Of a stretch of 48,796 nt of DNA, positions 8,403 through 33,971 are shown in pieces (position 1 is the first letter of the stretch; each line of letters begins with the position of its first letter). Location: IMG/VR virus record IMGVR_UViG_3300014887_000003; one strand, given 5' to 3'. The notes under the pieces were generated by a model. The model was given only the letters and a program-made list of their open reading frames with translations. It did no database searches and had not been told where the DNA came from. Position numbers and translations under genes: made by a program. This stretch comes from a virus.

Positions 8403-9629
8403 GTGACCTCCGAAGTTAAGCACTTTCTCGAACTTGAGGAAAAGCTCAGAACGCTCAACTCCGAAATACAGGGATTCAAGGCCGGCAAAATCAACAAAGA
8501 CGTATACGAGCTTGCAAAACAGGGATACTATAACTTTTGGAGGTTCAGAGACCTTATGAGGACGGTTGATGATGCAAGGGTTGAATTATACGACGTAGAT
8601 GAGCACGAGGACTACGTTGGGTTTAAACCCATCATCCACCCGCTGATCGACTGGAGCGAGGACTTGCTAAAGTGGAAAGAGGTTGCATGCCGCAGAGAGG
8701 GGGCGTTCTACAAGTGCGAGGAGGTTCCAGCCCATCCATTCTACGCTCACCAAGGTGAGATTCGTTCAGCGGGGATTACATGCGGTTTCATATCGCCGGA
8801 TGAGGAGAAAATATCAATGCTGAAAGCTGTAGACTCTTTTACAAACTGTCTACACTCCTTTGCTGTAGATGCAGCTAAAGCGTTCAAAGACAAAGATGAG
8901 CTTGAAGAGGAGACTGCTGGAATATGCAAGATAATAGGATACCCATCCGATCCCAAAACACGAGAAATTCTATTCAAAGCATGCAAAACATTTGCTAAGT
9001 GGGTAGACGAAAACGAGTGGTGGTATAGCAGTGCGGATACGGATGAGCAGGAGGGGTTAATATTCCCCAACAAGATACAGTTCACCATTGGAGGATATGT
9101 CGGGCACAAGTCTGAAATAGACCTGAAGGATATGGAATTCCTCTACTACGACCACCACTACGCAAGGGCTGAAGCGGCAAAGTATGCGCTTGAACGCGGA
9201 CTGAATTTAGAGTGTTCGGGCACATTAGAACTATCGTGTAAACTCAAATCGCCGGAAGATGCAATTGAGATTGCGAGATTTTTAACTTTTCTACCAAGCA
9301 TGGATATACACCTCAATGAGATTGCACACGATATTGCAAGTGAGAGATCCGAGATGTGCGAGGTGGAGTGTCATGCGGATCCAGAGGATTACATAGACTA
9401 CGATTCGTGTGTGGAGGATTGCGAGATATCGTGCGATGAAGATGAAGCGTGTAAAGAGGAGTGTATAGATTCGTGTGTTATTAACCAATGCGCCGATGTG
9501 TGCGGGAGGAGGACTTTGGAGGAAACAAAAGAGGAGCTATCAGAGAACTTGAGAGACCTGTACTATAAGGCCATCACGGATAGGAGTATGAACTACGGCG
9601 ATATACTAGAAGACCTAAGAGAGTGGTGA
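8403..9629 (+). CDS. Large acidic protein with C-terminal CxxxC-rich domain
   Basis: Probable GTG start at 8403 after AGGTGG; C-terminal CEVEC..CVEDCEISC..CKEECIDSC..CADVC. Confidence 0.8.
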   Translation: MTSEVKHFLELEEKLRTLNSEIQGFKAGKINKDVYELAKQGYYNFWRFRDLMRTVDDARVELYDVDEHEDYVGFKPIIHPLIDWSEDLLKWKEVACRREGAFYKCEEVPAHPFYAHQGEIRSAGITCGFISPDEEKISMLKAVDSFTNCLHSFAVDAAKAFKDKDELEEETAGICKIIGYPSDPKTREILFKACKTFAKWVDENEWWYSSADTDEQEGLIFPNKIQFTIGGYVGHKSEIDLKDMEFLYYDHHYARAEAAKYALERGLNLECSGTLELSCKLKSPEDAIEIARFLTFLPSMDIHLNEIAHDIASERSEMCEVECHADPEDYIDYDSCVEDCEISCDEDEACKEECIDSCVINQCADVCGRRTLEETKEELSENLRDLYYKAITDRSMNYGDILEDLREW

Positions 9630-9633
9630 TAAG

Positions 9634-10110
9634 GTGAAGGAAGCAATATATCTGGATGCTGACGATACCATCTGGGACGTGTTGCCGGACGGTATGGCAT
9701 CCAAATGCCTACCGCCGTACAAGAAGGTCGATGATGATCTGCTAATCGGCCACGGCAGCATGGGAGAATGTGCAATACTGCTGCGAGAGGGTGTTAGGGA
9801 TCTAATCGACTATGCAAAGTCTCATAACATGGACGTCGTACTTGTATCGCAGAATGATCCGGTTCCAGTTAAAGTTGCAATTAGAGAGCTGGATTTACCA
9901 TTTGACAGAGAGTACATTAGCTTTGATATGAACAAGTACCTTACTATATTAAGAGATATGCGAGAGCACGAAGTCGATCACGCATATTTTGTAGATGATG
10001 TCTACGGTAACGAGAAGCTTGTTAGAGGGATTAAGTCCCTCAAATTTATAAAAGATAGAGTTGAATTATACGACGACGTTACAAAATTAATTAGAAAGTT
10101 GGAAGGATAA
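9634..10110 (+). CDS. HAD-superfamily phosphatase (MDP-1-like)
   Basis: Motif I YLDADDTIW, motif II VSQN, motif IV FVDD. Confidence 0.8.
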   Translation: MKEAIYLDADDTIWDVLPDGMASKCLPPYKKVDDDLLIGHGSMGECAILLREGVRDLIDYAKSHNMDVVLVSQNDPVPVKVAIRELDLPFDREYISFDMNKYLTILRDMREHEVDHAYFVDDVYGNEKLVRGIKSLKFIKDRVELYDDVTKLIRKLEG

Positions 10111-12049: not shown

Positions 12050-12616
12050 ATGACCTCAAACTTCTGCGTTGTACTGCCAGAAGAGATCGTAGAAGACATG
12101 TGGAGAACACACGTTTCTGCTAAAGACTTTGACCGAGAACTGGGCTTCGCTCTTTGCGATGTTAACGGTAAAATCCTCCGTGGTTCGATATGCGAGGGTG
12201 ATGAGTGTAGAATTCCGGGTGAGAAAATCGAGTTCTGTCTAGTAGGGAAAACAATTGGTTTCTTCCACTCGCATATTGACAGCGAACCGGTACCCTCTCT
12301 ACAAGACCTTGAGTATGGGTATTCTACAGGAATACGTTTCGAGTGTATTGCCGGACTTGGAGATTGGGATGAAGAGATTGTTTGCTATGACCTCTCAGTT
12401 GCTAAAGACGAACTTGAACGCATAGATAAGATACTTGACGAGATAGAGAACATAAGAGACAAATACGGTATTAGATCGCCAATGGATATTCTGTCTATGG
12501 GCTTTGAGAGATACCTCAAATACAAAGAAGAGGTCGAACCTCTCGAACATGAGCTAGATAGAGTCTATGAGAGAGCCTTGGAAAAATTGATCGCAGAGGG
12601 TTCGTGCGAAATATAA
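12050..12616 (+). CDS. JAB/MPN+ (JAMM) metalloprotease-domain protein
   Basis: RELGFAL (catalytic E) ... GFFHSHIDSEPVPSLQDL = HxH-x7-S-x2-D motif. Confidence 0.8.
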   Translation: MTSNFCVVLPEEIVEDMWRTHVSAKDFDRELGFALCDVNGKILRGSICEGDECRIPGEKIEFCLVGKTIGFFHSHIDSEPVPSLQDLEYGYSTGIRFECIAGLGDWDEEIVCYDLSVAKDELERIDKILDEIENIRDKYGIRSPMDILSMGFERYLKYKEEVEPLEHELDRVYERALEKLIAEGSCEI

Positions 12617-12669
12617 AATGCAGAGACCTCTCTAGTAAGCGTTATATATGAAATAACAAAATCAAAAAC

Positions 12670-13341
12670 ATGAAATGCGATTATATTCTGTACAAGTCTC
12701 TTGAAGAGGAGTGCAACCCCGACGATTACTTTAACTGGATACGAGAAGAACTTATACCATCTATAAGGGAGTACAGCGAGGATTTGGCTGAAGAAACCGA
12801 AGAATGGGTTGACTGCACGTCGGGATTTCTTAGAAGGTACATGAAATTTGCGAGCGGTTGCATGACCGACGCTGAGCTATACAGGCTCTATAGCGATGTT
12901 CTGAAAATGATCAATGAGGGGATACAGGCACGAGAATACCAAAAAAGCTTAGCCGATGACCAGCTAAATGAGGCTAGAGAACTATACGCTCAAGAAATTA
13001 TAAATGAAGACGAGCTCATAGATATAAAACATTCCGTCAAGGAGGTTAAAAGAGCTCTTGATGAAGATATTGAGCAACTAGAAGAGTTAAAGGACTTTTG
13101 TATCAAGGCAGAAGATAAGTTCGATGTTGTTATGTGTATAGAGAGAGTTGCAACCACAGCACACAACAGAGGAGTTATGCTTCCAGTTATGTGTGGAGCT
13201 TATCTACCGGAAGATATTATTGACGCCGTAACGGGATGGGAGAGAGAACGCGAATATACAAGACCCGAAGATGTCGGGTTGTGGTTATCAAGGGATGCTG
13301 TAAAAGTATTTGAGTGCATAAAAGAATTCAAGGGGATGTAA
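12670..13341 (+). CDS. Acidic helical hypothetical protein
   Basis: 223-aa ORF; convergent with 13342-14130. Confidence 0.75.
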   Translation: MKCDYILYKSLEEECNPDDYFNWIREELIPSIREYSEDLAEETEEWVDCTSGFLRRYMKFASGCMTDAELYRLYSDVLKMINEGIQAREYQKSLADDQLNEARELYAQEIINEDELIDIKHSVKEVKRALDEDIEQLEELKDFCIKAEDKFDVVMCIERVATTAHNRGVMLPVMCGAYLPEDIIDAVTGWEREREYTRPEDVGLWLSRDAVKVFECIKEFKGM

Positions 13342-14130
13342 CTAAAGACCCTTTAACTGTTCTTCAGCCCACTCGATCAGATCTATCTCACCGCTCTTAA
13401 CTTTCCTGTCAAGCTCCTTCAGATGCTCTATTACCTGCTCTTTTGTAAGCATTTTGCCCTTCATTTCCTCTTCCGTTATGATCCTGAACGCAATAAACCC
13501 ATCTATCTCGATTGGTTGTCCTCCTTCTGGATTGTACGCTTTTTTAGTTGGATACTCAAACACAACCCGATCCTCGTTGAAGTTCACGTAGACGTTCATC
13601 TCGTTAGTATGATCGAGAGACATAATCTTGTCACTAAGTCTATCGGCAATGCCAACGAACATGGGATTACTCTCCCAGTCAAACACCGATGTCTGCGTCT
13701 CAATTGGTATTGTGAGATCTAAATCTTTGAAGTCTTTCTCATTAACCACTCTAAAACAGACGTTATTAACTTCATTTCTGCTATCTCCAAACTCACTAAC
13801 CTCAGACCTAACGACTGTTACCTTACAGTCGTATCCGTACGGCGTTTTGCGGCATCTAAGCTCGTATCTACTGAATAAATCTGCGAATGGGTCGTCTATA
13901 CCACCATAAATATCGTGATCGCTCCACAGCGCAATCAGCTCGTCACCAAAAACCTGAGAGCAGCTAATCCTGCTGATGAAAGCTCTCTTGTCTGGATTGT
14001 TCACAGTCTCGGCAATTCTTTCAATCTCTGCGAGGGCTCGTTCAGTAAAAGCTCTTCTAAGCGCCTCGTCCCCAATCGACTGGTAGTCCAACTCGATCTT
14101 ATGCTTGTAATAATCTTCATCAAAGCGCAT
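13342..14130 (-). CDS. Acidic hypothetical protein
   Basis: 262-aa ORF with GAGG RBS; overlapping + strand ORFs are shorter and look like shadows. Confidence 0.75.
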   Translation of the reverse strand: MRFDEDYYKHKIELDYQSIGDEALRRAFTERALAEIERIAETVNNPDKRAFISRISCSQVFGDELIALWSDHDIYGGIDDPFADLFSRYELRCRKTPYGYDCKVTVVRSEVSEFGDSRNEVNNVCFRVVNEKDFKDLDLTIPIETQTSVFDWESNPMFVGIADRLSDKIMSLDHTNEMNVYVNFNEDRVVFEYPTKKAYNPEGGQPIEIDGFIAFRIITEEEMKGKMLTKEQVIEHLKELDRKVKSGEIDLIEWAEEQLKGL

Positions 14131-14139
14131 CTTAATGCC

Positions 14140-14343
14140 TCACTTTTTTCTCCTGTACTTCCTCTCTCTAAACACCTCGTATTTGTCTGATAACAGCCTT
14201 AGCACCTCTACTATACTCTCTCCAACAGATTTGGGGACGTCCTTAACTTCCACGTGATCTATGAACACCTTGTACCTGTGAGTTGATGTATTGTGCCTAA
14301 CTCCCACAATCCTCCCCGAAATCGTGAACTTATACCACACCAT
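14140..14343 (-). CDS. Small basic hypothetical protein
   Basis: 67 aa, AGGTG RBS, basic C-terminus. Confidence 0.65.
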   Translation of the reverse strand: MVWYKFTISGRIVGVRHNTSTHRYKVFIDHVEVKDVPKSVGESIVEVLRLLSDKYEVFRERKYRRKK

Positions 14344-14351
14344 AACAACAC

Positions 14352-14510
14352 CTAAGAACGTCTTGGAACCAAAAAACCTATGCCAAAAGCAAAAGCTGCT
14401 AAAAGTATTGTCTTAGTGTCTAAGTTAAAAGATACAGAAGTGATGGCTAGCATAAGCAGAAGCACACCGGATACAAATGTAATCGTCAGTCCCAGCAGTC
14501 TCGACCACAT
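14352..14510 (-). CDS. Small two-TM membrane protein
   Basis: Likely start MWSRLLGL; two hydrophobic helices and an RRS tail. Confidence 0.6.
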   Translation of the reverse strand: MWSRLLGLTITFVSGVLLLMLAITSVSFNLDTKTILLAAFAFGIGFLVPRRS

Positions 14511-14768
14511 AATTAGAATTCCAGAAGATAATATATATTTCTTCTGATCTTCCAGTCGAATATATATTCGACAAAGTGGTGGATCAAAATATGGCAATGG
14601 AGTTTTCACCGTGGGGTTCGACCCCACCTACGTGCAACATAGACGCGTGAGAATGTTGTCTGTGAAGGGGCAATGATTAAAACTATAGCCCTCCCTCGGA
14701 AAATGCATCAGAGGAGCTCTATTTTTAACATTATGAATAATGCTAAATAATGAGCTAGACTAAATAAT

Positions 14769-14784
14769 CAAAACTCTTAAATAA
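14769..14784 (+). promoter_or_regulatory. Putative archaeal BRE-TATA promoter for the structured RNA
   Basis: CAAAACTC-TTAAATAA about 25 nt upstream of the abrupt GC-rich onset at ~14808. Confidence 0.55.
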
Positions 14785-14807
14785 CGTAACTTACTAAATA
14801 ATATTGA

Positions 14808-15322
14808 GGTGCGGGCGTGCGGGCAGGTGTGGAAACACACCTGCCTAAGTGGGTAGCCGTCGGGGCAGCAGAAAATCCGCCCCGCAACCCCGGCGGCAAT
14901 GATCCGTCACAGGTGGCGGGGACGGGAGAGCCCCGTCCACCGCTGGGGTCTGAGGGAAGCGGGGTGCAGCCGCTTCCCGATGAAGAGTTGGGTCAAGATT
15001 CATGTGAAACACTATTCTGTTATACGCCATACGGCGGGCTTGTTCTTGTACACGGTTCTTTTTGTGCTTTTAAACGCCGAGCCCGCACCGGCAGCGATGT
15101 CTAAACGGTCTTGTACAGCGAAACAAGCATACGCCCGCCTTGAATGCAGCAACAGTCTAGAACAGGGTTCATGTGAACAGTAAACACCCGGTGGTGGAGG
15201 GGCTTCAGGGAGGCTGTGCAACCGTTTTAGAAATCCAGTTGCACGACAAGCCCACCAGCCGGGTGTGCTCTCCCCGTGCCTGTCTGGTGGGTTCGGTGGA
15301 GCATAAACGGGGGACAAGAGCG
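14808..15322 (+). ncRNA. Large structured non-coding RNA of unknown class (~510 nt)
   Basis: GC-rich island with many helices: GGCAGGTGTG-GAAA-CACACCTGCC (14822-14845), GCCGTCGGGG/CCCCGGCGGC (14856-14897), GGGAAGCGG/CCGCTTCCC (14954-14978), GGCGGGC/GCCCGCC (15033/15133), ACACCCGG/CCGGGTGT (15184/15259). TATA upstream, T-tract downstream. Confidence 0.75.
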
Positions 15323-15342
15323 TTTTTAATTTTAAATTTTAT

Positions 15343-15391
15343 GGGGGTGCGGGTTCAAGCCCACATCCCGGTGCAAGTCCGGGACACCCCC
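15343..15391 (+). ncRNA. Miniature tRNA-like element (acceptor stem + small hairpin + T-arm, no anticodon arm)
   Basis: GGGGGTG/CACCCCC 7-bp stem, GGG-TTCAAG-CCC hairpin, TCCCGG-TGCAAGT-CCGGGA T-like arm; ATG follows at 15395. Confidence 0.65.
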
Positions 15392-15394
15392 GTT

Positions 15395-15973
15395 ATGTCG
15401 GTTAAAGAGATTGAGAAGATGATTAAGACATTGAAGTTAGGAACCAAAGTACCTAAAGACGTAATTAACAAAGCCATCAGTGTTCTCAATATCACTGTAG
15501 ATTACAGCGAACTAGGAGAAGTACATGACAACTATGTTATCGAAACATCATGGAAAATTCAAGAATTACTAGAAGCAGTAGTAAAATTAGACAAGACTAG
15601 GGAGGAACTATACAATGCATTCGAGGGTGTCAGAAATGTCGTTGGCAAAGCATGGACTGACAGACAGTGGAGAGGATCACTAACAAAAAAGGAGTCAAGA
15701 ATTGCAACAAAGATCATGGATTTAGAAGTATTGCTGAGAACAAAAAATGTATACTTACTAAGAGCTCTGCGAAGAGAGCATAAAAAACTACTAGAAAAAC
15801 ATGGAATCAAAAATGTCATTGTAAAGAGATTCAAGTATGGTACATGGCTGTTTGCAATTATTCCAATGAACGGCATCGTTGATGCCAGAGACTTGCCCAG
15901 AGAGTTCACTGGGTACTTAATAAACAGAAAGCAAAAATTTGGAATTAAATTTGTTAAAGGAGGGTTGAATTGA
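15395..15973 (+). CDS. Basic hypothetical protein
   Basis: Likely start at ATG 15395 (MSVKEIEK); the longer track ORF from 15173 runs through the structured RNA. Confidence 0.75.
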   Translation: MSVKEIEKMIKTLKLGTKVPKDVINKAISVLNITVDYSELGEVHDNYVIETSWKIQELLEAVVKLDKTREELYNAFEGVRNVVGKAWTDRQWRGSLTKKESRIATKIMDLEVLLRTKNVYLLRALRREHKKLLEKHGIKNVIVKRFKYGTWLFAIIPMNGIVDARDLPREFTGYLINRKQKFGIKFVKGGLN

Positions 15974-15974
15974 G

Positions 15975-16967
15975 ATGACTGAGATGATTCTAGTTTTTTT
16001 TAGAGGTAAACGAGGCAATATAGTATCACGGTTGCCGAATGGCAAAATAGCCCTAGTGAACAAGAAATCAACAATTGTCCCAAAACCCGGTGAGAAATGG
16101 GTCTGCAAAGTTGACTTTGAAAGGCCAAAATTCGCAGTAATAACACCGATTACAAGGATCGTCAAGAAAGAAGTCAAAGACATACTAAGGTATGCGTGCG
16201 GTTGCGAGGAAGTCATTGCAAGGCGCTACGAAGAAATGCCAGAGAACCAACCCCCGCAACACAGAATTATTCATGCGGGGGTTTGCGAGAGATGTTACCA
16301 AAAATACAAAGATGACATAGAGAGCATTAGCAACATCGACCTATTCAATGAACTGATCACAAAAAAAGTCAGTGAACTAGAGAGTAAAATTGTAGAACTT
16401 AAAAACAAAAAACTAGAGATCCAGCGAACGGTTTGGATAGAAATTCAAAGGTTACCACCAATACCCGGTTCCGGCGATAGAAAGGGACGATTTCCAGAGT
16501 ACATCGACTGCCCATACTGCGGCCAGAAAATTCCAGTAAGACAGCTAAAGAACGGCGAGTTCTATGAGTGCAAGTGCGGTGCAAGATTCATTATGAGTAA
16601 AACAGTAGACGTCGAACAAGGGTTCTGGGAGAAAACATGGGTGCAAGAGTACTGGAGTTTAAAAGACTTACAGAGAGAACAGGAGATACAACCGGAACTA
16701 GAGAAAATAGACAAAGAGATCAAGGAGCTAGAAGACCAAATTAAGAGAATCAGCGAAATCAGGGAGAAAAGACTCATCAGCGAACTTAGAAAACTGGGAA
16801 TCATCGAAGTCAGATACGACGTTGACAGAGGAACAGGAAAAGTTACAGTAACCTTCAGAGATGGAAAAACGATCACAGGGACATTCGACGATGGCTTCAT
16901 ATTCGATGTCCCAGAACACATTGTAAATATTCTAAGCAAATTACCCGTCAGAAATTTTATTTTCTAA
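15975..16967 (+). CDS. TRAM-like OB-fold + Zn-ribbon + coiled-coil protein
   Basis: N-terminal GKRGNIVSRLPNGKIALV..PGEKWVCKV..KFAVITPI resembles a TRAM domain; CGC, CERC, CPYC and CKC motifs. Confidence 0.6.
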   Translation: MTEMILVFFRGKRGNIVSRLPNGKIALVNKKSTIVPKPGEKWVCKVDFERPKFAVITPITRIVKKEVKDILRYACGCEEVIARRYEEMPENQPPQHRIIHAGVCERCYQKYKDDIESISNIDLFNELITKKVSELESKIVELKNKKLEIQRTVWIEIQRLPPIPGSGDRKGRFPEYIDCPYCGQKIPVRQLKNGEFYECKCGARFIMSKTVDVEQGFWEKTWVQEYWSLKDLQREQEIQPELEKIDKEIKELEDQIKRISEIREKRLISELRKLGIIEVRYDVDRGTGKVTVTFRDGKTITGTFDDGFIFDVPEHIVNILSKLPVRNFIF

Positions 16968-16968
16968 T

Positions 16969-17016
16969 GCCGGGGGGCTGGTGCCCTTTTCGCGGGTTCG
17001 ATTCCCGCGCCCCGGC
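16969..17016 (+). ncRNA. Miniature tRNA-like element filling the intergenic gap
   Basis: (AT)GCCGGGG/CCCCGGC(AT) stem, GGC-TGGT-GCC hairpin, CGCGGG-TTCGATT-CCCGCG canonical T-loop; lies between TAA 16967 and ATG 17019. Confidence 0.75.
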
Positions 17017-17018
17017 AT

Positions 17019-17306
17019 ATGATGGAGGTTAAGGTTGTTTGCCCGGTTTTGGATGTGTTTGGAAATATAAAGCCGGATAAAAAAGCTAAAAAAGTTAAAT
17101 TGCCAATTCACTTCAAAGTACAGCACAAAAATTCCGGTAGACGATACGATGTCTACTACTTCGAAAACTTGGATCTGCTCGTTAAAATCTCCAATTGTAC
17201 CAATACCAATGATTCCGATATCCACCCACCGTTCGATAGCTTTAAGCCTATAAGCAAGCACGTTTTTAATGCAATTCTCAATTCAGATGTTTTCGAGGTG
17301 GTGTAA
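17019..17306 (+). CDS. Hypothetical protein
   Basis: 95-aa ORF directly after the tRNA-like element. Confidence 0.7.
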   Translation: MMEVKVVCPVLDVFGNIKPDKKAKKVKLPIHFKVQHKNSGRRYDVYYFENLDLLVKISNCTNTNDSDIHPPFDSFKPISKHVFNAILNSDVFEVV

Positions 17307-18248
17307 ATGGGCAAGGAACTAATAATAGGTCATACAGACGGACATGGAGTTTCCGCCACCGCTATAACAGCAAGATTCCTAAAGCACGTTCACAAACCGT
17401 TCGAGGTTCTCTGCAAGTTCCCAGACACGGGCGTTATTCCCAAGTTTTGGTCAGAAACAATCGATAAGATCATAGAAAAAGCAGAGAAATATGAGAGAAT
17501 AATAATTTTGGATATCCCACTAGATGCAAAAAACATTCAGCTTAGTATTAAAAAGTTGATAGAATTGGCAGAGAGAACCGAGGTTATCTACGTGGATCAC
17601 CATCAGAGCAGTGCCGTTGACTTTGATAAACCTGAAAATCTGATATTCTCAGTCGTAGATTCAGCATACAAATGCTACTGGTACTACATTAACGACGGTG
17701 TAATACCAGAGATCTTGAAAATAGGAGCGATATGCGACAGAGATCCGAAAGTCTTTGATCTAGGAGTTACGAACAGAGAGCTAGAAATAGCTGATGGACT
17801 CGATGTCCTTGTCAGAAAAGACATCAATGAGGCATTGGATTTGTTAATAAACGCAGAAAACATGGGCGAAATAGAGGTAGAACTACTCAAGTATGCTAAT
17901 GAGATTCCAAACCCGACTATTGCGGCGGTTTGTGGTGGAGTCGTGGTTGTCAAAGATGTCCCACAGAGCTGGAAGTTCAAAGTTCTCGATAAAGCATGCA
18001 GGCAAACACGCAAGGATTATGCTGTGACGTTAACGGAGAACCAGCCAGACAGAGCAACTGGCGAGCCAAAGGACTTCGTAACAGCCATAAAGTTCTGGAT
18101 GTCCGATAAGCCGAGTGTTAAGGCATTGTTACCAGACGACTTACAAAAGATTGCAATTGGTCACCCTGATGCGATAACTATCAGTGTTCCAGTAGGACAG
18201 GGAAGAACTGTGCTCAAGAGAGTGCTTGAAGCCTTAAGGGGGGAGTAA
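17307..18248 (+). CDS. DHH-family phosphoesterase
   Basis: IIGHTDGHG, IILDIP, YVDHHQ and GAICD motifs plus DHHA1-like GHPDA. Confidence 0.85.
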   Translation: MGKELIIGHTDGHGVSATAITARFLKHVHKPFEVLCKFPDTGVIPKFWSETIDKIIEKAEKYERIIILDIPLDAKNIQLSIKKLIELAERTEVIYVDHHQSSAVDFDKPENLIFSVVDSAYKCYWYYINDGVIPEILKIGAICDRDPKVFDLGVTNRELEIADGLDVLVRKDINEALDLLINAENMGEIEVELLKYANEIPNPTIAAVCGGVVVVKDVPQSWKFKVLDKACRQTRKDYAVTLTENQPDRATGEPKDFVTAIKFWMSDKPSVKALLPDDLQKIAIGHPDAITISVPVGQGRTVLKRVLEALRGE

Positions 18249-18249
18249 T

Positions 18250-19329
18250 TTGGAGATTGATTGGTCAGGGAAACACATTCTACAAAAAAGCTTCCCCGTT
18301 GTTGGGGAAGCTAAAGTGTACATGAGAAGAAATGAAAACATGGGTAAGTGCTTACTTAAGAATGGTTTCATAACACCAAACATGCCTAAGCTTGGGTATG
18401 CCGTTGACTTCAGGTACGACGGAGAAACAGTAATAATGATGAACAGGCTTACTTCGGAAGCAGAAAAATTCGATTACGCTCATGTTTTCGAGAAGAGAGA
18501 TGGCTTTAATTGTTTGTTCTATTTGTACAGGAACAGAGTAATTCCAAAAACTCGATTAGCTCCAATAGCTTCAGGGAAAATAATACAGATAATCAAGCTG
18601 TCAGAATTTCCGATGAAAAACGTTGAGGAAATGGTCAAAGACGATTACATTCCTGTCTTTGAAATCTGGGGTACAAAACTGCTGGAGTACAACATACAGT
18701 TTGGCTGCGTTGATGTCAAAAAAGTTCAGGAGCTCGAAGGTCTTCCAGAGTTGAATGTTGACTTGATCGCTGTAATGCAGGCTGATTATAAAAATTACAA
18801 CTATACATTTCTGCCACCAGATCAGATTTTCAAGTTAGCAAGAGATTACAATCTAAATCCAGTGAAGTATCATGGAACTATTGAACTAACATACAACAAT
18901 GTCACAAAGATCATGGAGGAAGTTGAGGAGCAGAACAAAGACGGAATAATTTCTGAGGGCAGAGTTTTACATTGCTACAACGGGCAGTACAAAATGTTCA
19001 AAGTTAAACCATTTGACATAATGACCAAGGATGTTTCAGCAACGTCTAAAATAATTTCACCAAACAGAATTGTTGCAGAGTTACAAAAGATACTACTAGA
19101 AACTGATGTTCTAGAGATAACAAGGAATCCTGATTGCTACATTAAACAGCTAATAGATTATCTCTCAGAAGACTACAAACTGAATAAAAAATCAAAGAAA
19201 TTCATAATGAAAATCTTTGTTCAAGAGATAGCAAGGGAATTCGTCCAGAGATACAAAGATGTCAAAGAGCCTTGGAAACTAGGCGTCCATAAAATGTTCT
19301 TAGGTCAAATAATGGCTCTACTAAGGTGA
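18250..19329 (+). CDS. ATP-dependent RNA ligase-like nucleotidyltransferase
   Basis: Motif I EKRDGFN (KxDG), III VFEIWG, IIIa DLIAV, IV SEGRV, V MFKVK; no OB-fold C-terminus typical of DNA ligases. Confidence 0.8.
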   Translation: MEIDWSGKHILQKSFPVVGEAKVYMRRNENMGKCLLKNGFITPNMPKLGYAVDFRYDGETVIMMNRLTSEAEKFDYAHVFEKRDGFNCLFYLYRNRVIPKTRLAPIASGKIIQIIKLSEFPMKNVEEMVKDDYIPVFEIWGTKLLEYNIQFGCVDVKKVQELEGLPELNVDLIAVMQADYKNYNYTFLPPDQIFKLARDYNLNPVKYHGTIELTYNNVTKIMEEVEEQNKDGIISEGRVLHCYNGQYKMFKVKPFDIMTKDVSATSKIISPNRIVAELQKILLETDVLEITRNPDCYIKQLIDYLSEDYKLNKKSKKFIMKIFVQEIAREFVQRYKDVKEPWKLGVHKMFLGQIMALLR

Positions 19330-20115
19330 ATGGAAATGGAGGCAAAGATGCTTATGAACTTGGACTTTTGTTTTAAGCCAGTTCTTAGGAAGAATGGAGA
19401 AGAGAAACAGTACGGCCCTCGGTTTTCTATATTTATTAAACCACCAACAGACAAGTGGTGGAAACTTAGTCCCCCCGATAAAGAGTACCAATGGGATCCA
19501 GAGCTGGACGGCGAGTGGGAGTGGGGCTACAAGTGCGTAATATGCGGCAAGTTCTTCAAGTTGCTTGACCACAGGGCTAAGCAGCATTTCAAGTGTTTTG
19601 CAGAGGCGTTCGGTGAGGTTTCAGGAATGAACGAAATGCGAAGACTAAGAATTGCAGTACACAGCAAAGCGGGGAACAACGCAATAATGCCAGCATTACA
19701 GGCAGCAGGCATACAGATAAGGCCGGTCAGCGAGATCAAAAAAGAGATGATCAAGCATGCAGAGACGCACAAGCACGAGATCGAGCGCAGGTACAGGCAG
19801 TGGCTTACTGAGCAATTCAAGCAGTACATGGACACCATAGTAAGGGAGTGGAACACCAAGAACGAGGACGAGTTCATGGTTTATCCAATGGAAGTTCCAA
19901 GGAGCAGATGCATTCGAACTAGTGATGCAGTCATCTTTAAGAATGCATGGAGAGTATATACAGTCATTTTCAAAGGCGATGTTGAGGTGCGAGAAAGGCA
20001 TGACTCGTTTGTGACTTATTGTTACATCTCATTGAAGAATAAGCGGCTGAAAAATATTAGAATGAGCAAAAGCGGCAAATCGTTTATAGTAGTGCTCAAA
20101 CAATTAAACTTCTAA
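19330..20115 (+). CDS. Hypothetical protein with Zn-finger-like motif
   Basis: YKCVICGKFF..H...HFKC. Confidence 0.7.
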   Translation: MEMEAKMLMNLDFCFKPVLRKNGEEKQYGPRFSIFIKPPTDKWWKLSPPDKEYQWDPELDGEWEWGYKCVICGKFFKLLDHRAKQHFKCFAEAFGEVSGMNEMRRLRIAVHSKAGNNAIMPALQAAGIQIRPVSEIKKEMIKHAETHKHEIERRYRQWLTEQFKQYMDTIVREWNTKNEDEFMVYPMEVPRSRCIRTSDAVIFKNAWRVYTVIFKGDVEVRERHDSFVTYCYISLKNKRLKNIRMSKSGKSFIVVLKQLNF

Positions 20116-20136
20116 ATTTTTTTTGGAGGTGGGATT

Positions 20137-20502
20137 ATGCCTACAAAACTTTATACGGAAGACGAAGTATTCGTTTCAGTAGACGAATTGGAAGAGATAG
20201 CCACAATACCAGAAAAACGATTAGAACTTATTGACAAATTGTGGATTGCATGTGACAATTACTACAATGCCTTCAAGATCAAAAATCCCAAGGCAGTAGT
20301 AAGCATATCCATCGCAAACTTAATTCACGAAGTCGTCAGAAGTCGGGAATTACCAGTATATGACGCTATTGCAAAGCTAATAGATAAACTACAACTGAAA
20401 ATAAAATCCATAAACGAACTGTATACTACTGACATTGATAGAGCACTAGAAGAGCAGGAAAAGCTACGCAAGGTTCTAGAAGATTTAGTACATTCCCTAT
20501 AA
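20137..20502 (+). CDS. Hypothetical protein
   Basis: T-tract + GGAGGTG upstream. Confidence 0.75.
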   Translation: MPTKLYTEDEVFVSVDELEEIATIPEKRLELIDKLWIACDNYYNAFKIKNPKAVVSISIANLIHEVVRSRELPVYDAIAKLIDKLQLKIKSINELYTTDIDRALEEQEKLRKVLEDLVHSL

Positions 20503-21406: not shown

Positions 21407-21548
21407 AAAACACAAACTGCCATAATAACTCTTTATTTTTTGGAGGGATGTGTGGGCGATATGAGACACTTAGCTGTCCAAGTCGTTTGAACTTGACTTC
21501 AGACTTAAATTTTTAATTTTTTGGGGGAATTTGGAGGTGGTGTTGTTG

Positions 21549-21824
21549 GTGAAGGTTTTGAAGTTTTTTAAAGGAAAGAAGGGCGATTTTATATCAAGGT
21601 ACGATGATGGAAGGATAAAGGCAGATATGGTGAGGGATGTACCAAAGGACTTTGCTTTCGTAGTCGTTGATGTAGAGGTCGAATCAATTAAGGCATTGCT
21701 TGGTGAAGTGGCAAAAGAGTTCGACTCCTTTTACATCAAGACAGAGAACGGTAAGATCATTGAAGCCTACGGAATGCACGGAATAATCCCGCACGACGAT
21801 AAACCAGTCTATAAGATTTTATAA
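21549..21824 (+). CDS. TRAM-like N-terminus protein (paralogue of 21863-22525)
   Basis: GTG start after GGAGGTGG; VLKFFKGKKGD N-terminus; 35 nt identical to the next gene. Confidence 0.7.
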   Translation: MKVLKFFKGKKGDFISRYDDGRIKADMVRDVPKDFAFVVVDVEVESIKALLGEVAKEFDSFYIKTENGKIIEAYGMHGIIPHDDKPVYKIL

Positions 21825-21862: not shown

Positions 21863-22525
21863 ATGAGGGTTTTGAAGTTTTTTAAAGGAAAGAAGGGCGA
21901 TTACATTTCTAAATGGAGCGACGGTAGGATCGTTATCCCTACCAGACCTGTAAGCGAGGGTAAGTATATCTGCAAAATCGTAAGATATGCTCGCAGATAC
22001 GTTCTCGTGGAGCCGGTTCAGCCGGCTCACGATTATCTCGAAGTCTGCAACGGTCTAATAAGAATTACAATATATTACGATGAAAAAGTGCACGGGGACT
22101 ACATTGACATCTACGACGTATTTGGGCGAGGGATGAAACTGTATTTTACTACAAAAGCTGTTAGAGGTTTCATTGATTTCGACAGTAACAGAAGGACTGC
22201 AGTGTTCGCATTTCTGGCGATGCTAGGCCTGAAAGAGGCAGAGAAGGAATTCGATAAACAAGTAGTTCAAGTGTACAGGGGTGTAGGAGCTATTCACACA
22301 ATATTCCAGAGAGACTATGCGCTAAAAGCCTTTGGATCATCAGTTACTGCAGAGGAAGCCAGAGAGATACTGCACAGCAATTCAACGGAAAATGAAGTTC
22401 TTAAGGAGCAACTGAACGAGATCTTAAGAGAGGCAGAGGTTAGCAGAGACGATACGAACGAGCTAATCAACTTCGCGGCCAAAATAAAAGGTATCCAGAA
22501 CTTATTTAGTTCTGGAGGGTTATGA
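21863..22525 (+). CDS. TRAM-like domain protein
   Basis: GKKGDYISKWSDGRIVIP..SEGKYICKIVRYARRYVLVEPV. Confidence 0.65.
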   Translation: MRVLKFFKGKKGDYISKWSDGRIVIPTRPVSEGKYICKIVRYARRYVLVEPVQPAHDYLEVCNGLIRITIYYDEKVHGDYIDIYDVFGRGMKLYFTTKAVRGFIDFDSNRRTAVFAFLAMLGLKEAEKEFDKQVVQVYRGVGAIHTIFQRDYALKAFGSSVTAEEAREILHSNSTENEVLKEQLNEILREAEVSRDDTNELINFAAKIKGIQNLFSSGGL

Positions 22526-27421: not shown

Positions 27422-27784
27422 TTGGCGCACATTCGTAAATACACTCGCTTGGAGGTTGAGGTAGGCTCTTTTGGATTGAGCCCAGACGTAGTTCAGAGGG
27501 CTATTAGCGATGCCATAAAGTACCACTACACCTGCTACTTAGATTACACAAATCTGAGGATTGTTGACATAAAAGACAACGTAATTACTCTGGAGAAGGT
27601 CGGTAAGGTTACAGATGAGGAGTTTGCAAAGGTACAAGAAGTTGCAGAGAATATAGAGGAGAAACTACAGGACTTAGCTAAACTCAAGAGAAACTTGGAT
27701 TTAATTATCCCATCACCGGCAAGAGACGTATTCGAAAAACATCACGGAGGTGACGCAAGTGGAGGTTGCAAGCCCAATAATTAA
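27422..27784 (+). CDS. Hypothetical protein
   Basis: ORF with GGGGGTGA RBS upstream of the AAA gene. Confidence 0.65.
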   Translation: MAHIRKYTRLEVEVGSFGLSPDVVQRAISDAIKYHYTCYLDYTNLRIVDIKDNVITLEKVGKVTDEEFAKVQEVAENIEEKLQDLAKLKRNLDLIIPSPARDVFEKHHGGDASGGCKPNN

Positions 27785-29024
27785 AGTCCCGTTGAATGAA
27801 GCCAAAGAACTCGTAAAGCAGCTCTATCTGAAAGGTCACAGGCAGAGCATACTGTGGCTCGGTGCACCCGGTATAGGTAAAAGCGAGGGGATTAAACAGA
27901 TAGCGGAAGAGTTAGCTGATATCAAGAGAAAAGAGTTTGAGCCAATAAAATTTAGGTTCCGTGGAAAGAAGTTGCTCAACTATACCACCGTTTACGAGAG
28001 AGCCGCAGCTATACTCAGCGAGCCTGATAGGTACTTTTCCTTCCTTGATATCAGGCTGACGGAGTTTGAGCCTGTTGACTTGATGGGCGTACCGAGAGAC
28101 TTCAAGCTAAACATTAAAGATCTCGAAGCTACCCTTTTTGACTACCAACCGTTCATCTGGCAGCTTATAGCTTCATCAACAGCAGGCATAGCCCTTTTTG
28201 ATGAGGTAACGAACGTCAACAGACCTGATCTGCGTACAGTCATGTACAAGATTCTCAGAGACCGCATGACTGGCTGGGTGGAATTTCACCCAGATATGCT
28301 CGTGATGGCAGCAGGCAACAGACCAGAAGATGCAGCTATCGCGAGCCAGCTCGATGCCCCTGTAATAAACAGAGTTCTAGTAATGAATATACTGCAACCA
28401 TCAGTTGACGATTGGGCTGAAAAATACATGAACAAATATGTTGAAGATTGGGACAGAAGGGTCTATGCATTCCTAAAGCGATTTGAAAATTTCATGTTCC
28501 AGAAGCCGCAGGATGTCGAGACTCTTGATCCATTCCCAACACCACGATCTTGGACTGAGCTTGCAAAAATTTCACACAAGATTTCAGAGGATCATCTGGA
28601 ATACGTAGTATATGGAGAAGTTGGAGCCGAGGCTGCATCACACTTCGTTACATTCGTCAGAACAAACGTTCCTGACCTAAGTGAAGTACTTGCACATCCA
28701 GAAAAGCTGGCTGCCCTTGACGTTGATGGAAAATACCTCGTGGCATCTCAGGTAGCCTCACAGATTAACGCCGAGCTTACGGCGAATCCGCACAAGAAGA
28801 CCGATGTAAAACCGGCTGTACAGAAGTACGTAAGGTTGTTCACATGGCTCAACCAAAATGACAGGGAAATACTCATGCTCATACTCACAATGTGCAACGA
28901 TAAAGTTAGGGTTAGGTTGCATGCTACAATGTTAACAATTCCAGCGCTGAGACCCGTTGCAGAATTCATGAAAGACAGTATTAAGCTCGGTTGGGATGTT
29001 GGAATCGATAAAACCAGAAGGTGA
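27750..29024 (+). CDS. MoxR-like AAA+ ATPase
   Basis: LGAPGIGKS, LFDEVTN, AAGNR, INRV and FPTPRSW motifs. Confidence 0.88.
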   Translation: MTQVEVASPIIKVPLNEAKELVKQLYLKGHRQSILWLGAPGIGKSEGIKQIAEELADIKRKEFEPIKFRFRGKKLLNYTTVYERAAAILSEPDRYFSFLDIRLTEFEPVDLMGVPRDFKLNIKDLEATLFDYQPFIWQLIASSTAGIALFDEVTNVNRPDLRTVMYKILRDRMTGWVEFHPDMLVMAAGNRPEDAAIASQLDAPVINRVLVMNILQPSVDDWAEKYMNKYVEDWDRRVYAFLKRFENFMFQKPQDVETLDPFPTPRSWTELAKISHKISEDHLEYVVYGEVGAEAASHFVTFVRTNVPDLSEVLAHPEKLAALDVDGKYLVASQVASQINAELTANPHKKTDVKPAVQKYVRLFTWLNQNDREILMLILTMCNDKVRVRLHATMLTIPALRPVAEFMKDSIKLGWDVGIDKTRR

Positions 29025-29458
29025 TCGCCATGGACTTTAGCGTAGAAAAAACGGCTGTTTACAAATTTTTTAACGTGTGTAGAGAGGATGTCGATAGTAT
29101 AACTGAAGTTGTAGCGGCACTAGAAGGTTTTGTACCAGACGTGTACTGGCACGAAGACGTTGCAATTGCAATAGTTTCGGGATCTGGAACTAACCACATA
29201 GATTATGAAGAAGCTACAGCGTATAAGATACTTACACTACAGGATGCTCTGAACTCTATCGGAGACAGAAAAGCATGCAAAATCGATCTCGTTTACAGAG
29301 ATCCGGGGTTTGAAGTCTACGTATGCTGGACTCATCGAAAGGTCTGGAAGATCGATACCACAGGAATAGGATCTCTACTCGATAATCCGCCTAAAACATG
29401 TAAAGAATGCGAGGATGCCATAAGAAGAGCTCATCAAGTGGCTGAGGGAACATCTTGA
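29021..29458 (+). CDS. Hypothetical protein
   Basis: Coupled to the AAA gene. Confidence 0.7.
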   Translation: MIAMDFSVEKTAVYKFFNVCREDVDSITEVVAALEGFVPDVYWHEDVAIAIVSGSGTNHIDYEEATAYKILTLQDALNSIGDRKACKIDLVYRDPGFEVYVCWTHRKVWKIDTTGIGSLLDNPPKTCKECEDAIRRAHQVAEGTS

Positions 29459-29574
29459 AGAAAATGGAGGACTGTGACCTATGATACGCTTCCCACGTCT
29501 CGGCTTTCCAAGCCGGAGACCGCACAGATCATTACTGTACAGAAAAATTAAGCGTCAGTTTAGGAGGTGGAACA

Positions 29575-30918
29575 ATGCAGGTAAAGGACGCTTATCTAAA
29601 AACGATGCTGCTAATCGCTAGAACGCACCCACACCTGTATTTCCTTTCTAAATACTTACGAGTTGTATACGATGAAAACGCACCGCTTACAATGACGAAC
29701 GGAAAAGTGCTTATAATATCCCCAACGTGGCTTGAATACAACGATAGAGGGCGTTACATAATTTTTCTGCACGAACTCTATCACGTGTTGCTGAAGCATC
29801 CGGTAAGAGCTGCACAGGCTACCAAAGCCCTCGGTTGCAGTCCAGATACTGCTTTAATTGCCTGCGATGCTAAGGTAAACTATCTACTGCTGTTATCGCT
29901 TGAAGATAGGTTCTCCAGAGACGTGTTCGAAGAGGTTGCAGAAATGTTGCCAACATACAACGTTGATGAAGAACTGCTCGAAAAGGGCAGCATAGAGGAG
30001 ATCATCAAGTGGCTAATGGATAATCAGAAGCAACCCATGTCACCAACTTTTGGCAACGACATAGTAGGGGGGGATAGTAGCAGAGATGAAACCCAAGATG
30101 GGAGTCAGCATGGCAACCAAGATCAGCAAGATCATGGAGATCATGGAGGTAGTAGCGGACAGAGTGATCAGAGCCGGCATGATGACAGGTATCCAAGCAG
30201 GGGAACCGGCAGAACGGTTGTGCTGAACGAGGGGTCTGAAACGCTACGCAATACTAAAGATGACGATGAACTGGATCAAAAACTCACAAAAATAATAAGA
30301 GATTCGTTGCTATCGGCAAAAATGGCTGGAGCAACACTGACTGCAATAGAGGAGAGAATAGTACAGTTTCTAACTAAGTCAAAAGTAAATTGGAGATCCC
30401 TCCTTAGGAGCGCCATACAATCGTACATAAGGAATACTGTTGTGCAGTCATATCAGCGACCGAACAGGAGATTTAGCCATCTACCGGGCATTAAGTCAAT
30501 GTCGAAGCCTAATGCATGGGTGTTCATCGATCTAAGTGGTAGCATAAGTGAGAGAGAATTCAATCAGTTCATGAGCGAGGTAAAGGCTCTAACGCAGCAT
30601 GTGAATTCTCTAAAGCTCATAACGTGGGATACATTCGTTACAGGTGAGTACGACATAGTGAGAGGAGATCAAATCGGAAAGATACAATTTAGAGGTGGCG
30701 GTGGCACGAGGTTCGCGCCAGTTATATCACAGTATTTGGACAAAATTAAGTCAGAAGATGTTGTAATTGTCCAAACAGACGGGATCTGGTATGATAAAAA
30801 TACGGCAGAACCTCTTGTTAAAAAGATCAGAGCATTTAAGGTAGCTGTTACCACAAGTGTGGATCTGGACTTTTTCGATAGATGTATACGTATTGAGGTT
30901 GAGAAAAACCCATTTTAA
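29575..30918 (+). CDS. HExxH metallopeptidase-like + vWA domain protein (DUF2201-type)
   Basis: FLHELYHVLLKH; low-complexity D/Q/G/S linker; MIDAS IDLSGS, GGGGT, QTDG. Confidence 0.85.
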   Translation: MQVKDAYLKTMLLIARTHPHLYFLSKYLRVVYDENAPLTMTNGKVLIISPTWLEYNDRGRYIIFLHELYHVLLKHPVRAAQATKALGCSPDTALIACDAKVNYLLLLSLEDRFSRDVFEEVAEMLPTYNVDEELLEKGSIEEIIKWLMDNQKQPMSPTFGNDIVGGDSSRDETQDGSQHGNQDQQDHGDHGGSSGQSDQSRHDDRYPSRGTGRTVVLNEGSETLRNTKDDDELDQKLTKIIRDSLLSAKMAGATLTAIEERIVQFLTKSKVNWRSLLRSAIQSYIRNTVVQSYQRPNRRFSHLPGIKSMSKPNAWVFIDLSGSISEREFNQFMSEVKALTQHVNSLKLITWDTFVTGEYDIVRGDQIGKIQFRGGGGTRFAPVISQYLDKIKSEDVVIVQTDGIWYDKNTAEPLVKKIRAFKVAVTTSVDLDFFDRCIRIEVEKNPF

Positions 30919-33341: not shown

Positions 33342-33971
33342 ATGATTAAAACCGCAGATCAAACGAAGTATCCAAGACAGAAATGGTCGGTGCTATACGA
33401 TACGCAGAGCCCGATAAGATACACGAGAATACTCAGACCTGTCGAATTTGATCTACTGGTCGAGGGTGTTCCAAGTTATGAGAACCGCATAAAGCTCAAA
33501 ATAGCTTTAGTAACCGGTATGAGATTCAGAGAACTTCAAAAGCTGCACAAGCACCCCGAATGGTGGAGGAAAGATGAAGACTACATTCTAATTGAAGAGA
33601 TAAAACCAAAGAGAAAAGAGAACAAAGTATACAGAAGATACGTTTTTCTGCCAGATGTTGCACGTGAGCTCTTGGATGCTTTCTTCTCAATGAAGCTGAG
33701 ATTCCCAACATACCAGACATGGGAGGAGAGCCTAAAGCGATGGGCTAACAGAGCTGGATTGTCTCCACTCTACATGAACGCAAGAATGACCCGCAAAACG
33801 TGGGAATGCTGGCTAACATTCAGCTTTCCGCACATGAGAGATCAGATACTGCTAAGTCAGGGTCACACGTCCGAGACTTCAATAAAACACTACCTTAACA
33901 CACCGTTTACGGAGGAAGATTTAATTAAAATGAAGTATTGGGTGAAAGGATGGGACAGAATCCGCGCTTAA
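33342..33971 (+). CDS. Tyrosine recombinase/integrase catalytic domain
   Basis: TGMRFREL (R), RKTW (R), QGHT (H), HY (Y). Confidence 0.85.
   Translation: MIKTADQTKYPRQKWSVLYDTQSPIRYTRILRPVEFDLLVEGVPSYENRIKLKIALVTGMRFRELQKLHKHPEWWRKDEDYILIEEIKPKRKENKVYRRYVFLPDVARELLDAFFSMKLRFPTYQTWEESLKRWANRAGLSPLYMNARMTRKTWECWLTFSFPHMRDQILLSQGHTSETSIKHYLNTPFTEEDLIKMKYWVKGWDRIRA

Follow-up and report, generated by a model that had tools for sequence, protein, structure and literature searches.

Genes and RNA elements of the locus

We analysed positions 15975 to 19329 of a 48,796-nucleotide (nt) DNA from the IMG/VR virus record IMGVR_UViG_3300014887_000003; this whole stretch is referred to as the window. The window is an archaeal integrative mobile element that encodes Cdc6, MCM, topoisomerase IA, an XPD-like helicase, a HerA-like ATPase, and an integrase-like gene. 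Four open reading frames (ORFs) of 330, 95, 313, and 359 amino acids (aa) lie on the plus strand of the analysed segment, and the last two encode a DHH-type phosphoesterase and an RNA-ligase-type nucleotidyltransferase (NTase). Both are divergent members of enzyme kinds that are already known, and neither carries an annotation. Their pairing is putative as a system and lineage-specific, and it is not a described repair system. A preliminary description of this DNA reported co-oriented genes for a TRAM-like protein, a DHH protein, and a ligase with a KxDG motif, accompanied by tRNA-like elements and a large upstream RNA. All of these were found, the large RNA as a GC-rich stretch, and the coordinates of the four ORFs agree with ours. 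The features of the locus are listed below.

15343–15392, plus strand: tRNA-like element 1, with an acceptor-like stem, a small hairpin, and a T-arm-like hairpin; its 3' end lies 2 nt before the ATG at 15395
15395–15973, plus strand: ORF of about 192 aa that immediately follows tRNA-like element 1 and has no Shine-Dalgarno (SD) sequence
15975–16967, plus strand: 330-aa TRAM-fold protein
16969–17017, plus strand: tRNA-like element 2, with a GCCGGGG/CCCCGGC acceptor-like stem, a small hairpin, and a T-arm (CGCGG-GTTCGATT-CCGCG); its 3' end lies 1 nt before the ATG at 17019
17019–17306, plus strand: 95-aa ORF, which opens a tight run of the 95-aa, DHH, ligase, and 261-aa genes
17307–18248, plus strand: 313-aa DHH/DHHA1 phosphoesterase of a 'DxHG / DRD / GHxxA' subfamily
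18250–19329, plus strand: 359-aa RNA-ligase-type NTase with a TTG start
19330–20115, plus strand: 261-aa protein with a C2H2-like CxxC...HxxxxH motif and without a P-loop, beginning right after the ligase stop codon

Starting with the 95-aa ORF, successive genes are 0–1 nt apart from stop to start codon, and GGAGG-like (SD-like) runs are located within the upstream gene. Such tight packing is general throughout the element. For comparison, we used two close relatives, designated L001 and L002; L002 is a related contig with 85–96% protein identity. The ratio of synonymous to non-synonymous codon changes relative to L002 was 47:19 for the DHH gene, 94:55 for the ligase gene, and 22:9 for the gene of the 330-aa TRAM-like protein. 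Thus, the changed codons are mostly synonymous, indicating that these genes are real and under purifying selection.

The ligase and the DHH protein

The ligase showed a weak match to the Pfam family RNA_ligase (PF09414, E 0.0028) and matched nothing in NCBIfam (E ≤ 1), PHROGs, or PADLOC. A database search yielded relatives in 18 sequence clusters, which are 39–85% identical apart from the cluster of the protein itself. All of the clusters originate from metagenomes or metagenome-assembled genomes (MAGs) of thermophilic archaea, together with Ferroglobus placidus (Ferp_0570) and a Thermococcus MAG. No relative was found in the viral_contigs, phages, or plasmids collections. In the alignment of 18 sequences, K82-x-D84-G85 (motif I), E138 (motif III), E236-G237-x-V239-x-H241 (motif IV), and K251-x-K253 (motif V) were invariant. 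These are the motifs of the covalent nucleotidyltransferase superfamily (KxDG as motif I, followed by III, IV, and V), and K82 is the predicted adenylated lysine.

An AlphaFold (AF2) model of the ligase (pLDDT 92.8) comprises an N-terminal beta domain, an NTase domain, and an all-helical C-terminal region. Foldseek placed Rnl3 enzymes on top with E values of about 1e-12. VIA-align gave Z-scores of 16.7 for MthRnl (5d1o), 15.6 for the Aquifex structure 3qwu, 15.3 for T4 Rnl1, and 14.8 for Pab1020, compared with 12.6–14.4 for Rnl5, Rnl6, and Rnl2 and about 10 for DNA ligases. A search of 48,161 chains that was independent of Foldseek returned the same order; its top 11 rows were all RNA ligases (Z 12.6–16.0), while DNA ligases reached Z 8–10.5 and capping enzymes about 7. 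The alignments with 5d1o, 3qwu, 2vug, and 8uce cover the model from residue 1 to 326–339, and that with T4 Rnl1 covers residues 1–296/307. We found no OB domain in the ligase, which, together with the gap in Z-scores, argues against a DNA ligase. In searches of the PDB, the single sequence matched nothing, and the family profile matched Rnl3 chains alone (2vug, E 8e-5).

The curated Rnl3 models TIGR01209 and PF18330 were unmatched by the ligase. Its homologue P0011 scored 15.6 bits against TIGR01209, whose cut-off is 136.9, through motif I only. Weak matches to PF09414 were seen for 11 of the 18 family members, and four of the 18 weakly matched PF09511 (best E 4.4e-6), which the window protein did not. 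The ligase therefore falls below every curated family threshold, which points to a new Rnl3-like clade. The six Rnl families and the flanking domains that define them are summarized in PMC11040149, and our literature searches found no description of this clade.

Rnl3 enzymes are archaeal homodimers built of four domains (N-terminal, NTase, dimerisation, and C-terminal), and T4 Rnl1 is characterized by a C-terminal helical domain that binds tRNA. Compared with the Rnl3 enzymes Pab1020, MthRnl, and Palaeococcus pacificus Rnl, the window protein has the same NTase motifs, a thermophilic archaeal origin, and a fold that matches from residue 1 to about 330 (Z 14.8–16.7). However, its sequence identity to them is only 14–17%. 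Members of its clade reside on mobile elements; Rnl3 genes, by contrast, are found on chromosomes and co-occur with HARP RNase P (PMC12153264). Judged by its model, the protein is an RNA-ligase-type enzyme of a deep new clade that is nearest to Rnl3 and then to Rnl1. The likeness to Pab1020/Rnl3-type ligases on which the preliminary description drew is supported by both fold and profile. If the ligase is active, it would represent a deep new branch of ATP-dependent RNA ligases in viruses and plasmids of hyperthermophilic archaea and a candidate thermostable ligase. An active enzyme would also be a clue that RNA sealing matters in the conflict between archaeal viruses and their hosts.

The 313-aa DHH protein scored 28.0 bits against Pfam DHH, for which the cut-off is 28.1. 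In an alignment of 16 sequences, H9-x-D11-x-H13-G, D69, D97-H98-H99, D144-R145-D146, and G285-H286 were invariant. They include the motifs of the DHH/DHHA1 superfamily, namely D11-x-H13 (a variant of DxD), D69, D97-H98-H99, D144, and G285-H286. An exhaustive profile search of 1.84 billion representatives recovered 293 proteins at E ≤ 0.001. Motif I reads DxH rather than the usual DxD in 100 of the 112 near-full-length members, and the DHH, DRD, and GHxxA signatures are kept. No relative was found in the viral_contigs collection, and PADLOC gave no match.

The AF2 model of the DHH protein (pLDDT 94.4) aligned end to end with two-domain DHH/DHHA1 enzymes. The highest Z-scores were obtained with RecJ-Cdc45 (7bhi, 18.8) and Methanocaldococcus jannaschii RecJ2 (18.2), followed by a PAP phosphatase (8a8k, 16.4), bacterial RecJ (about 16), and PggH, NrnA, and GdpP (11–13). 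The whole protein aligned to the core of 7bhi and 7yik. A PDB search with the single sequence gave only noise. The protein failed the archaeal RecJ model NF053576, with 18.3 bits against a cut-off of 360 and a length of 313 aa against 430–470 aa.

The archaeal RecJ-like nucleases (RecJ-Cdc45/GAN and M. jannaschii RecJ2) and the PAP phosphatase of M. thermolithotrophicus share with the window protein the two-domain fold, the H-x-D spacing of motif I, and the DHH triad. Unlike these enzymes, its family mostly has His in place of the second Asp of motif I and its own DRD and GHxxA signatures. The protein is more than 100 residues shorter than RecJ-Cdc45 and stays below the cut-offs of all curated models. 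According to the preliminary description, a RecJ-like DNA exonuclease at this position would speak against RNA repair. The fold goes halfway towards such an enzyme, as its top matches are RecJ-Cdc45 and RecJ2 (Z 18–19), but the extra domains are absent, and the sequence alone is silent on DNA versus RNA. The identification as a DHH phosphoesterase itself holds, since all catalytic motifs are kept and the protein appears intact. Its alignment and model assign it to a subfamily that is small and distinct and presumably active, with an intact predicted two-metal active site.

We surveyed domain fusions and genomic neighbours of the DHH subfamily. Among 48 long relatives, 15 carry HD or HD-CE domains, and seven (P0097, P0099, P0106, P0109, P0128, P0130, and P0183) carry a Csx3'-type P-loop domain, which matches the AAA half of the PADLOC Csx3-AAA models. 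Proteins P0086, P0094, P0095, and others are further fusions, and some fusions also contain Fic or HATPase_c. The reading of the PADLOC 'Csx3' matches as a Csx3 ring nuclease was rejected; the matched part is the P-loop half with a GDPNSGKS Walker A motif, and its Atlas structure is ParA/MeaB-like. A profile of the P-loop/DHH fusions matched nothing in the PDB, which leaves a Clp1- or Pnk-like kinase identity conjectural. In cyanobacterial Csx3' proteins, the same kind of P-loop domain is joined to the Csx3 ring nuclease (PMC7371418).

Genes of the DHH subfamily occupy variable accessory regions of archaeal viruses and elements, and one relative, annotated as hypothetical, is located near the genome end of the lipothrixvirus SBFV3. 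In L075 (3827–10378, genome G284), the gene of a 489-aa cellular member comes right after an operon for a Bmp/PnrA nucleoside ABC transporter; an adenine deaminase gene is nearby, and the context looks like purine salvage. Across the loci, no neighbour of the DHH genes was recurrent except small RHH proteins. Taken together, these associations suggest that the subfamily works on RNA ends or oligonucleotides in a conflict setting, without singling out a substrate. The DxH-site subfamily is uncharacterised and recurs in archaeal viruses, also fused to HD and Csx3'-type P-loop domains, and its substrate would bear on the biology of counter-defence.

Linkage of the two genes and their possible roles

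The preliminary description suggested a gene-neighbourhood survey, and the result did not bear out the dedicated DHH-based healing and sealing system that it proposed. The DHH and ligase genes are adjacent only in the window element and in its relatives with 85–96% identity (L001/L002). The gene order in the 85%-identical relative is 210 aa, 327 aa, 95 aa, DHH, ligase, and an extra 160-aa gene. This extra gene (L001 4289–4771 / L002 7090–7572) lies between the ligase gene and the 251/261-aa gene and is absent from the window. A profile search found a DHH-family gene in none of the eight other ligase loci (L003, L004, L006, L007, and L014–L017); among these are Ferroglobus, a locus that has type IV CRISPR as well as an integrase, and several arrays resembling those of viruses. 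Conversely, about 13 DHH loci whose flanks extend over several kb contained no ligase of this clade; the DHH loci compared were L008–L013, L020, L021, L035, and L043–L050. For the fusion protein P0097, the contig did not extend far enough to show gene context.

We also noted other RNA ligase and tRNA genes in the compared loci. A Njordarchaeota MAG contig (L010/L011 1014–7029) has a PAPS-reductase-like gene followed by tRNA-Tyr and a 284-aa RNA ligase of PF09414; after eight small ORFs come the genes of an RHH protein and of a DHH-subfamily member. The virus-like contig L017 encodes a second PF09414 RNA ligase of 219 aa (9057–9716) 1 kb downstream of the clade ligase, with a tRNA-Gln gene 3.6 kb upstream. 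In L003, a PAPS-reductase-like gene neighbours type IV CRISPR genes and precedes the ligase-clade gene by about 3.4 kb.

The nucleotide identity to L002 over 12600–20200 is mosaic. It is about 99% at 12600–15400, 80–95% at 15400–16000, and 100% over the 577 nt at 16753–17329, which contain tRNA-like element 2 and the 95-aa ORF. Over the ligase region (18000–19500) it is about 80%, with 94–100% on both flanks. This low-identity patch between highly similar flanks indicates that the ligase was exchanged on its own, as a divergent allele, by patchwise recombination. The DNA of the 95-aa ORF is 100% identical in L001/L002; constraint at the RNA level was considered for its perfect identity with L002 and rejected, as mosaic recombination explains it best.

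Scans of the window ORFs with Pfam and for Walker-A motifs gave only the HerA-like ATPase, the MoxR-like AAA protein, the XPD-like helicase, Cdc6, and MCM. Thus, no 5'-OH polynucleotide kinase was recognisable in the window, although small or non-P-loop kinases could escape these scans. Our literature searches found no DHH–RNA ligase repair system described.

We favour, with a probability of roughly 0.45, the reading that the ligase and the DHH protein are two independently mobile enzymes of RNA-end or oligonucleotide chemistry, which may cooperate in this element. The locus is part of a long, tightly packed polycistronic array of the archaeal mobile element. The ligase would use ATP to seal 3'-OH/5'-phosphate ends of RNA, most likely of single-stranded RNA, and may serve break repair or circularisation. 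Since no healing partner accompanies it in the eight other elements, it probably acts on its own. Suitable ends could arise where RNase P and RNase Z cut the element's transcripts at their tRNA-like punctuation, and from metal-dependent host RNases. The substrates of the DHH protein would be 3' ends of RNA or short (oligo)ribonucleotides. Because its gene and that of the ligase are neighbours in this lineage and seem translationally coupled, it might generate a ligatable 3'-OH that the ligase then seals.

Several observations weigh against this reading of independent enzymes. The DHH and ligase genes are 1 nt apart with an SD-like run before the ligase start, suggesting co-expression, and the pair is kept in L001/L002; since the packing is tight element-wide, the short gap is weak evidence of coupling. 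In the virus-like contig from Njordarchaeota, tRNA-Tyr and an RNA ligase of another kind (PF09414) are encoded 3 kb upstream of a distant DHH relative in the same array; that the DHH subfamily is paired a second time, here with a ligase that is not homologous, may reflect a real functional link. The top PDB match of the DHH family profile is the PAP 3'-phosphatase 8a8k (E 0.003), an enzyme of healing-type chemistry. Many of the synteny loci are short, and the negative linkage count rests on about 20 informative loci. The first three of these points would suit a dedicated heal-and-seal cassette, in which the DHH protein removes a 3'-phosphate or 2',3'-cyclic phosphate or trims the 3' end and the ligase seals, with the 5'-phosphate already present or added by a host kinase. 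Such a cassette would serve either as a defence against ribonucleases of the host or in the maturation or circularisation of RNAs made by the element itself. DHH enzymes are cited in PMC7824862 as hydrolysing 2',3'-cyclic nucleotides, and the nearby tRNA-like elements of the RNase P/Z type would supply 5'-phosphate and 3'-OH ends. We nevertheless regard such a cassette as doubtful, given the missing linkage at the other ligase and long DHH loci, the negative kinase scans, and the recombination that exchanged the ligase independently of most of the DHH gene. The model in the preliminary description was T4 Pnkp and Rnl1. The window resembles it in that a mobile element encodes a phosphoesterase beside an ATP-dependent RNA ligase, whose fold scores Z 15.3 to T4 Rnl1. 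It differs in three respects: the window ORFs include no recognisable 5'-kinase, the phosphoesterase is of the DHH and not of the HAD-type phosphatase fold, and the linkage occurs in one lineage only. We conclude that the DHH and ligase genes are not a conserved dedicated system of this type; a repair system formed by the two enzymes is at most possible.

Readings that separate the two enzymes further have to be weighed as well. The DHH protein might be a phosphodiesterase of counter-defence or nucleotide turnover that is unrelated to the ligase and targets cyclic or linear oligoadenylates, pAp, or nanoRNA. Two DHH enzymes degrade type III CRISPR signals, MAD acting on cA4 (PMC8284326) and NrN on SAM-AMP (PMC10600005). 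The location of the subfamily in variable accessory regions, including that near the SBFV3 genome end, its fusions to HD/HD-CE and Csx3'-linked P-loop domains (PMC7371418), and the cellular member next to the nucleoside transporter would fit this role. Like MAD and NrN, the window protein is a DHH/DHHA1 protein in a setting of genetic conflict; unlike them, it lacks a membrane anchor, has neither CorA nor Cas genes as neighbours, and does not match them in sequence. Moreover, the fused P-loop domain is not of the Csx3 ring-nuclease fold, which makes the CRISPR link indirect, none of the DHH members was seen in a type III CRISPR context, and the structural Z-scores are higher for RecJ-type nucleases than for NrnA, GdpP, and PggH. 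We therefore consider this role unlikely. Those same RecJ-type matches would suit a role in DNA metabolism, in which the DHH protein is a minimal RecJ/Cdc45-like single-stranded DNA exonuclease working with the MCM replisome or in recombination, and the ligase seals nicks in DNA or RNA–DNA. Weak matches to NCBIfam RecJ_archaeal (E 8.6e-4) and to a PHROG RecJ-like family, and the Cdc6 and MCM genes of the element, agree with it. However, the DHH protein is without the inserted and extra domains of archaeal RecJ/GAN and scores far below the archaeal RecJ cut-off, its gene lies 27 kb from mcm, and the ligase, besides having no OB domain, is much closer to RNA ligases (Z 13–17) than to DNA ligases. 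A function in DNA metabolism is even less probable on these grounds.

The pairing of the two genes with tRNA-like punctuation raises a testable question, namely whether archaeal elements process and circularise their own transcripts. One conceivable route would require no kinase. Host RNase P and RNase Z would cut at the anticodon-less tRNA-like marks, the DHH protein would tidy the 3' ends, and the Rnl3-like ligase would circularise or re-join the GC-rich RNA of about 510 nt, the mini-tRNAs, or mRNA segments. We regard this route as a speculative proposal with a low chance of being correct. If true, it would yield circular RNAs resistant to heat and exonucleases, and would add a DHH-based healing enzyme and a new RNA ligase family.

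The TRAM-like protein, RNA elements, and neighbouring genes

The 330-aa protein consists of an N-terminal TRAM-fold domain (residues 1–64), a Cys cluster (C75, C104, and C107), a zinc ribbon at about 178–203, a coiled coil, and a variable C-terminus. The zinc ribbon gave weak matches to Pfam Zn-ribbon families. In the Atlas model, residues 1–64 matched TRAM clusters at TM 0.62–0.73 in ten rows, nine of which carry PF01938 or a TRAM name, and a feature search, used as a lead only, ranked TRAM first with a score of 0.80. Pfam TRAM (PF01938) was unmatched at E ≤ 1 by this protein and by its paralogues at 21531 and 21863. The TRAM-likeness noted in the preliminary description is thus borne out by the fold and not by Pfam. 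Conservation across ten homologues is restricted to residues 1–110, that is, the TRAM fold and the Cys cluster.

The two paralogues (21531–21824, 97 aa; 21863–22525, 220 aa) begin with the same FFKGKKGD..S....GRI sequence as the 330-aa protein. This shared N-terminus indicates that a family with the TRAM-like N-domain has expanded locally. The gene of the 330-aa protein lies upstream of tRNA-like element 2 and belongs to a different unit from the DHH–ligase run, and the family is present in no other ligase or DHH locus among those compared. Its inclusion in the proposed cassette is therefore not upheld. The TRAM-fold protein is a separate, locally expanded family of RNA-binding type and not a fixed part of the DHH/ligase pair.

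Both tRNA-like elements are about 50 nt long and have a T-arm-like hairpin with a 7-nt loop. Element 1 folds with −30.4 kcal/mol (z −3.0), contains the T-loop-like motif GGGTTCAAGCCC, and is identical in L002. Element 2 folds with −29 kcal/mol (z −2.1) and lies within the 577-nt block identical to L002. ARAGORN and Rfam detected no tRNA or known RNA family in the window, these elements included. A search for the T-loop motif in the other ligase loci found no mini-tRNA elements. The ATGs immediately after both elements have no SD sequence, and the later genes of each run have SD-like runs. This is the pattern that would be expected if RNase Z cutting produced leaderless first cistrons. For the GC-rich region at 14808–15322, upstream of element 1, Rfam gave no match, either at the gathering threshold or with E ≤ 1. 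Being 96–100% identical in L002, the region is too similar there for a covariation test.

Among the flanking genes, the product of the ORF of about 192 aa is 86% identical in L001/L002 and matched no family in Pfam or NCBIfam. The 95-aa ORF matched no family in Pfam, PHROGs, NCBIfam, or PADLOC. The 261-aa protein, which shares 92% identity with its counterpart in L001/L002, had no significant family in the same four databases.

Farther away in the window, a 209-aa protein (33342–33971) gave a near-threshold match to tyrosine recombinases (Phage_integrase, 23.7 bits against a cut-off of 27.1). The related element in L001 abuts host-like genes (PmbA/TldD and riboflavin synthesis). Both observations fit with an integrative element. 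The region 27750–30918 encodes a MoxR-like P-loop ATPase, a 145-aa ORF, and a DUF2201 metallopeptidase/VWA protein, in this order. A MoxR-like ATPase paired with a DUF2201/VWA protein is a two-gene module of a known kind.

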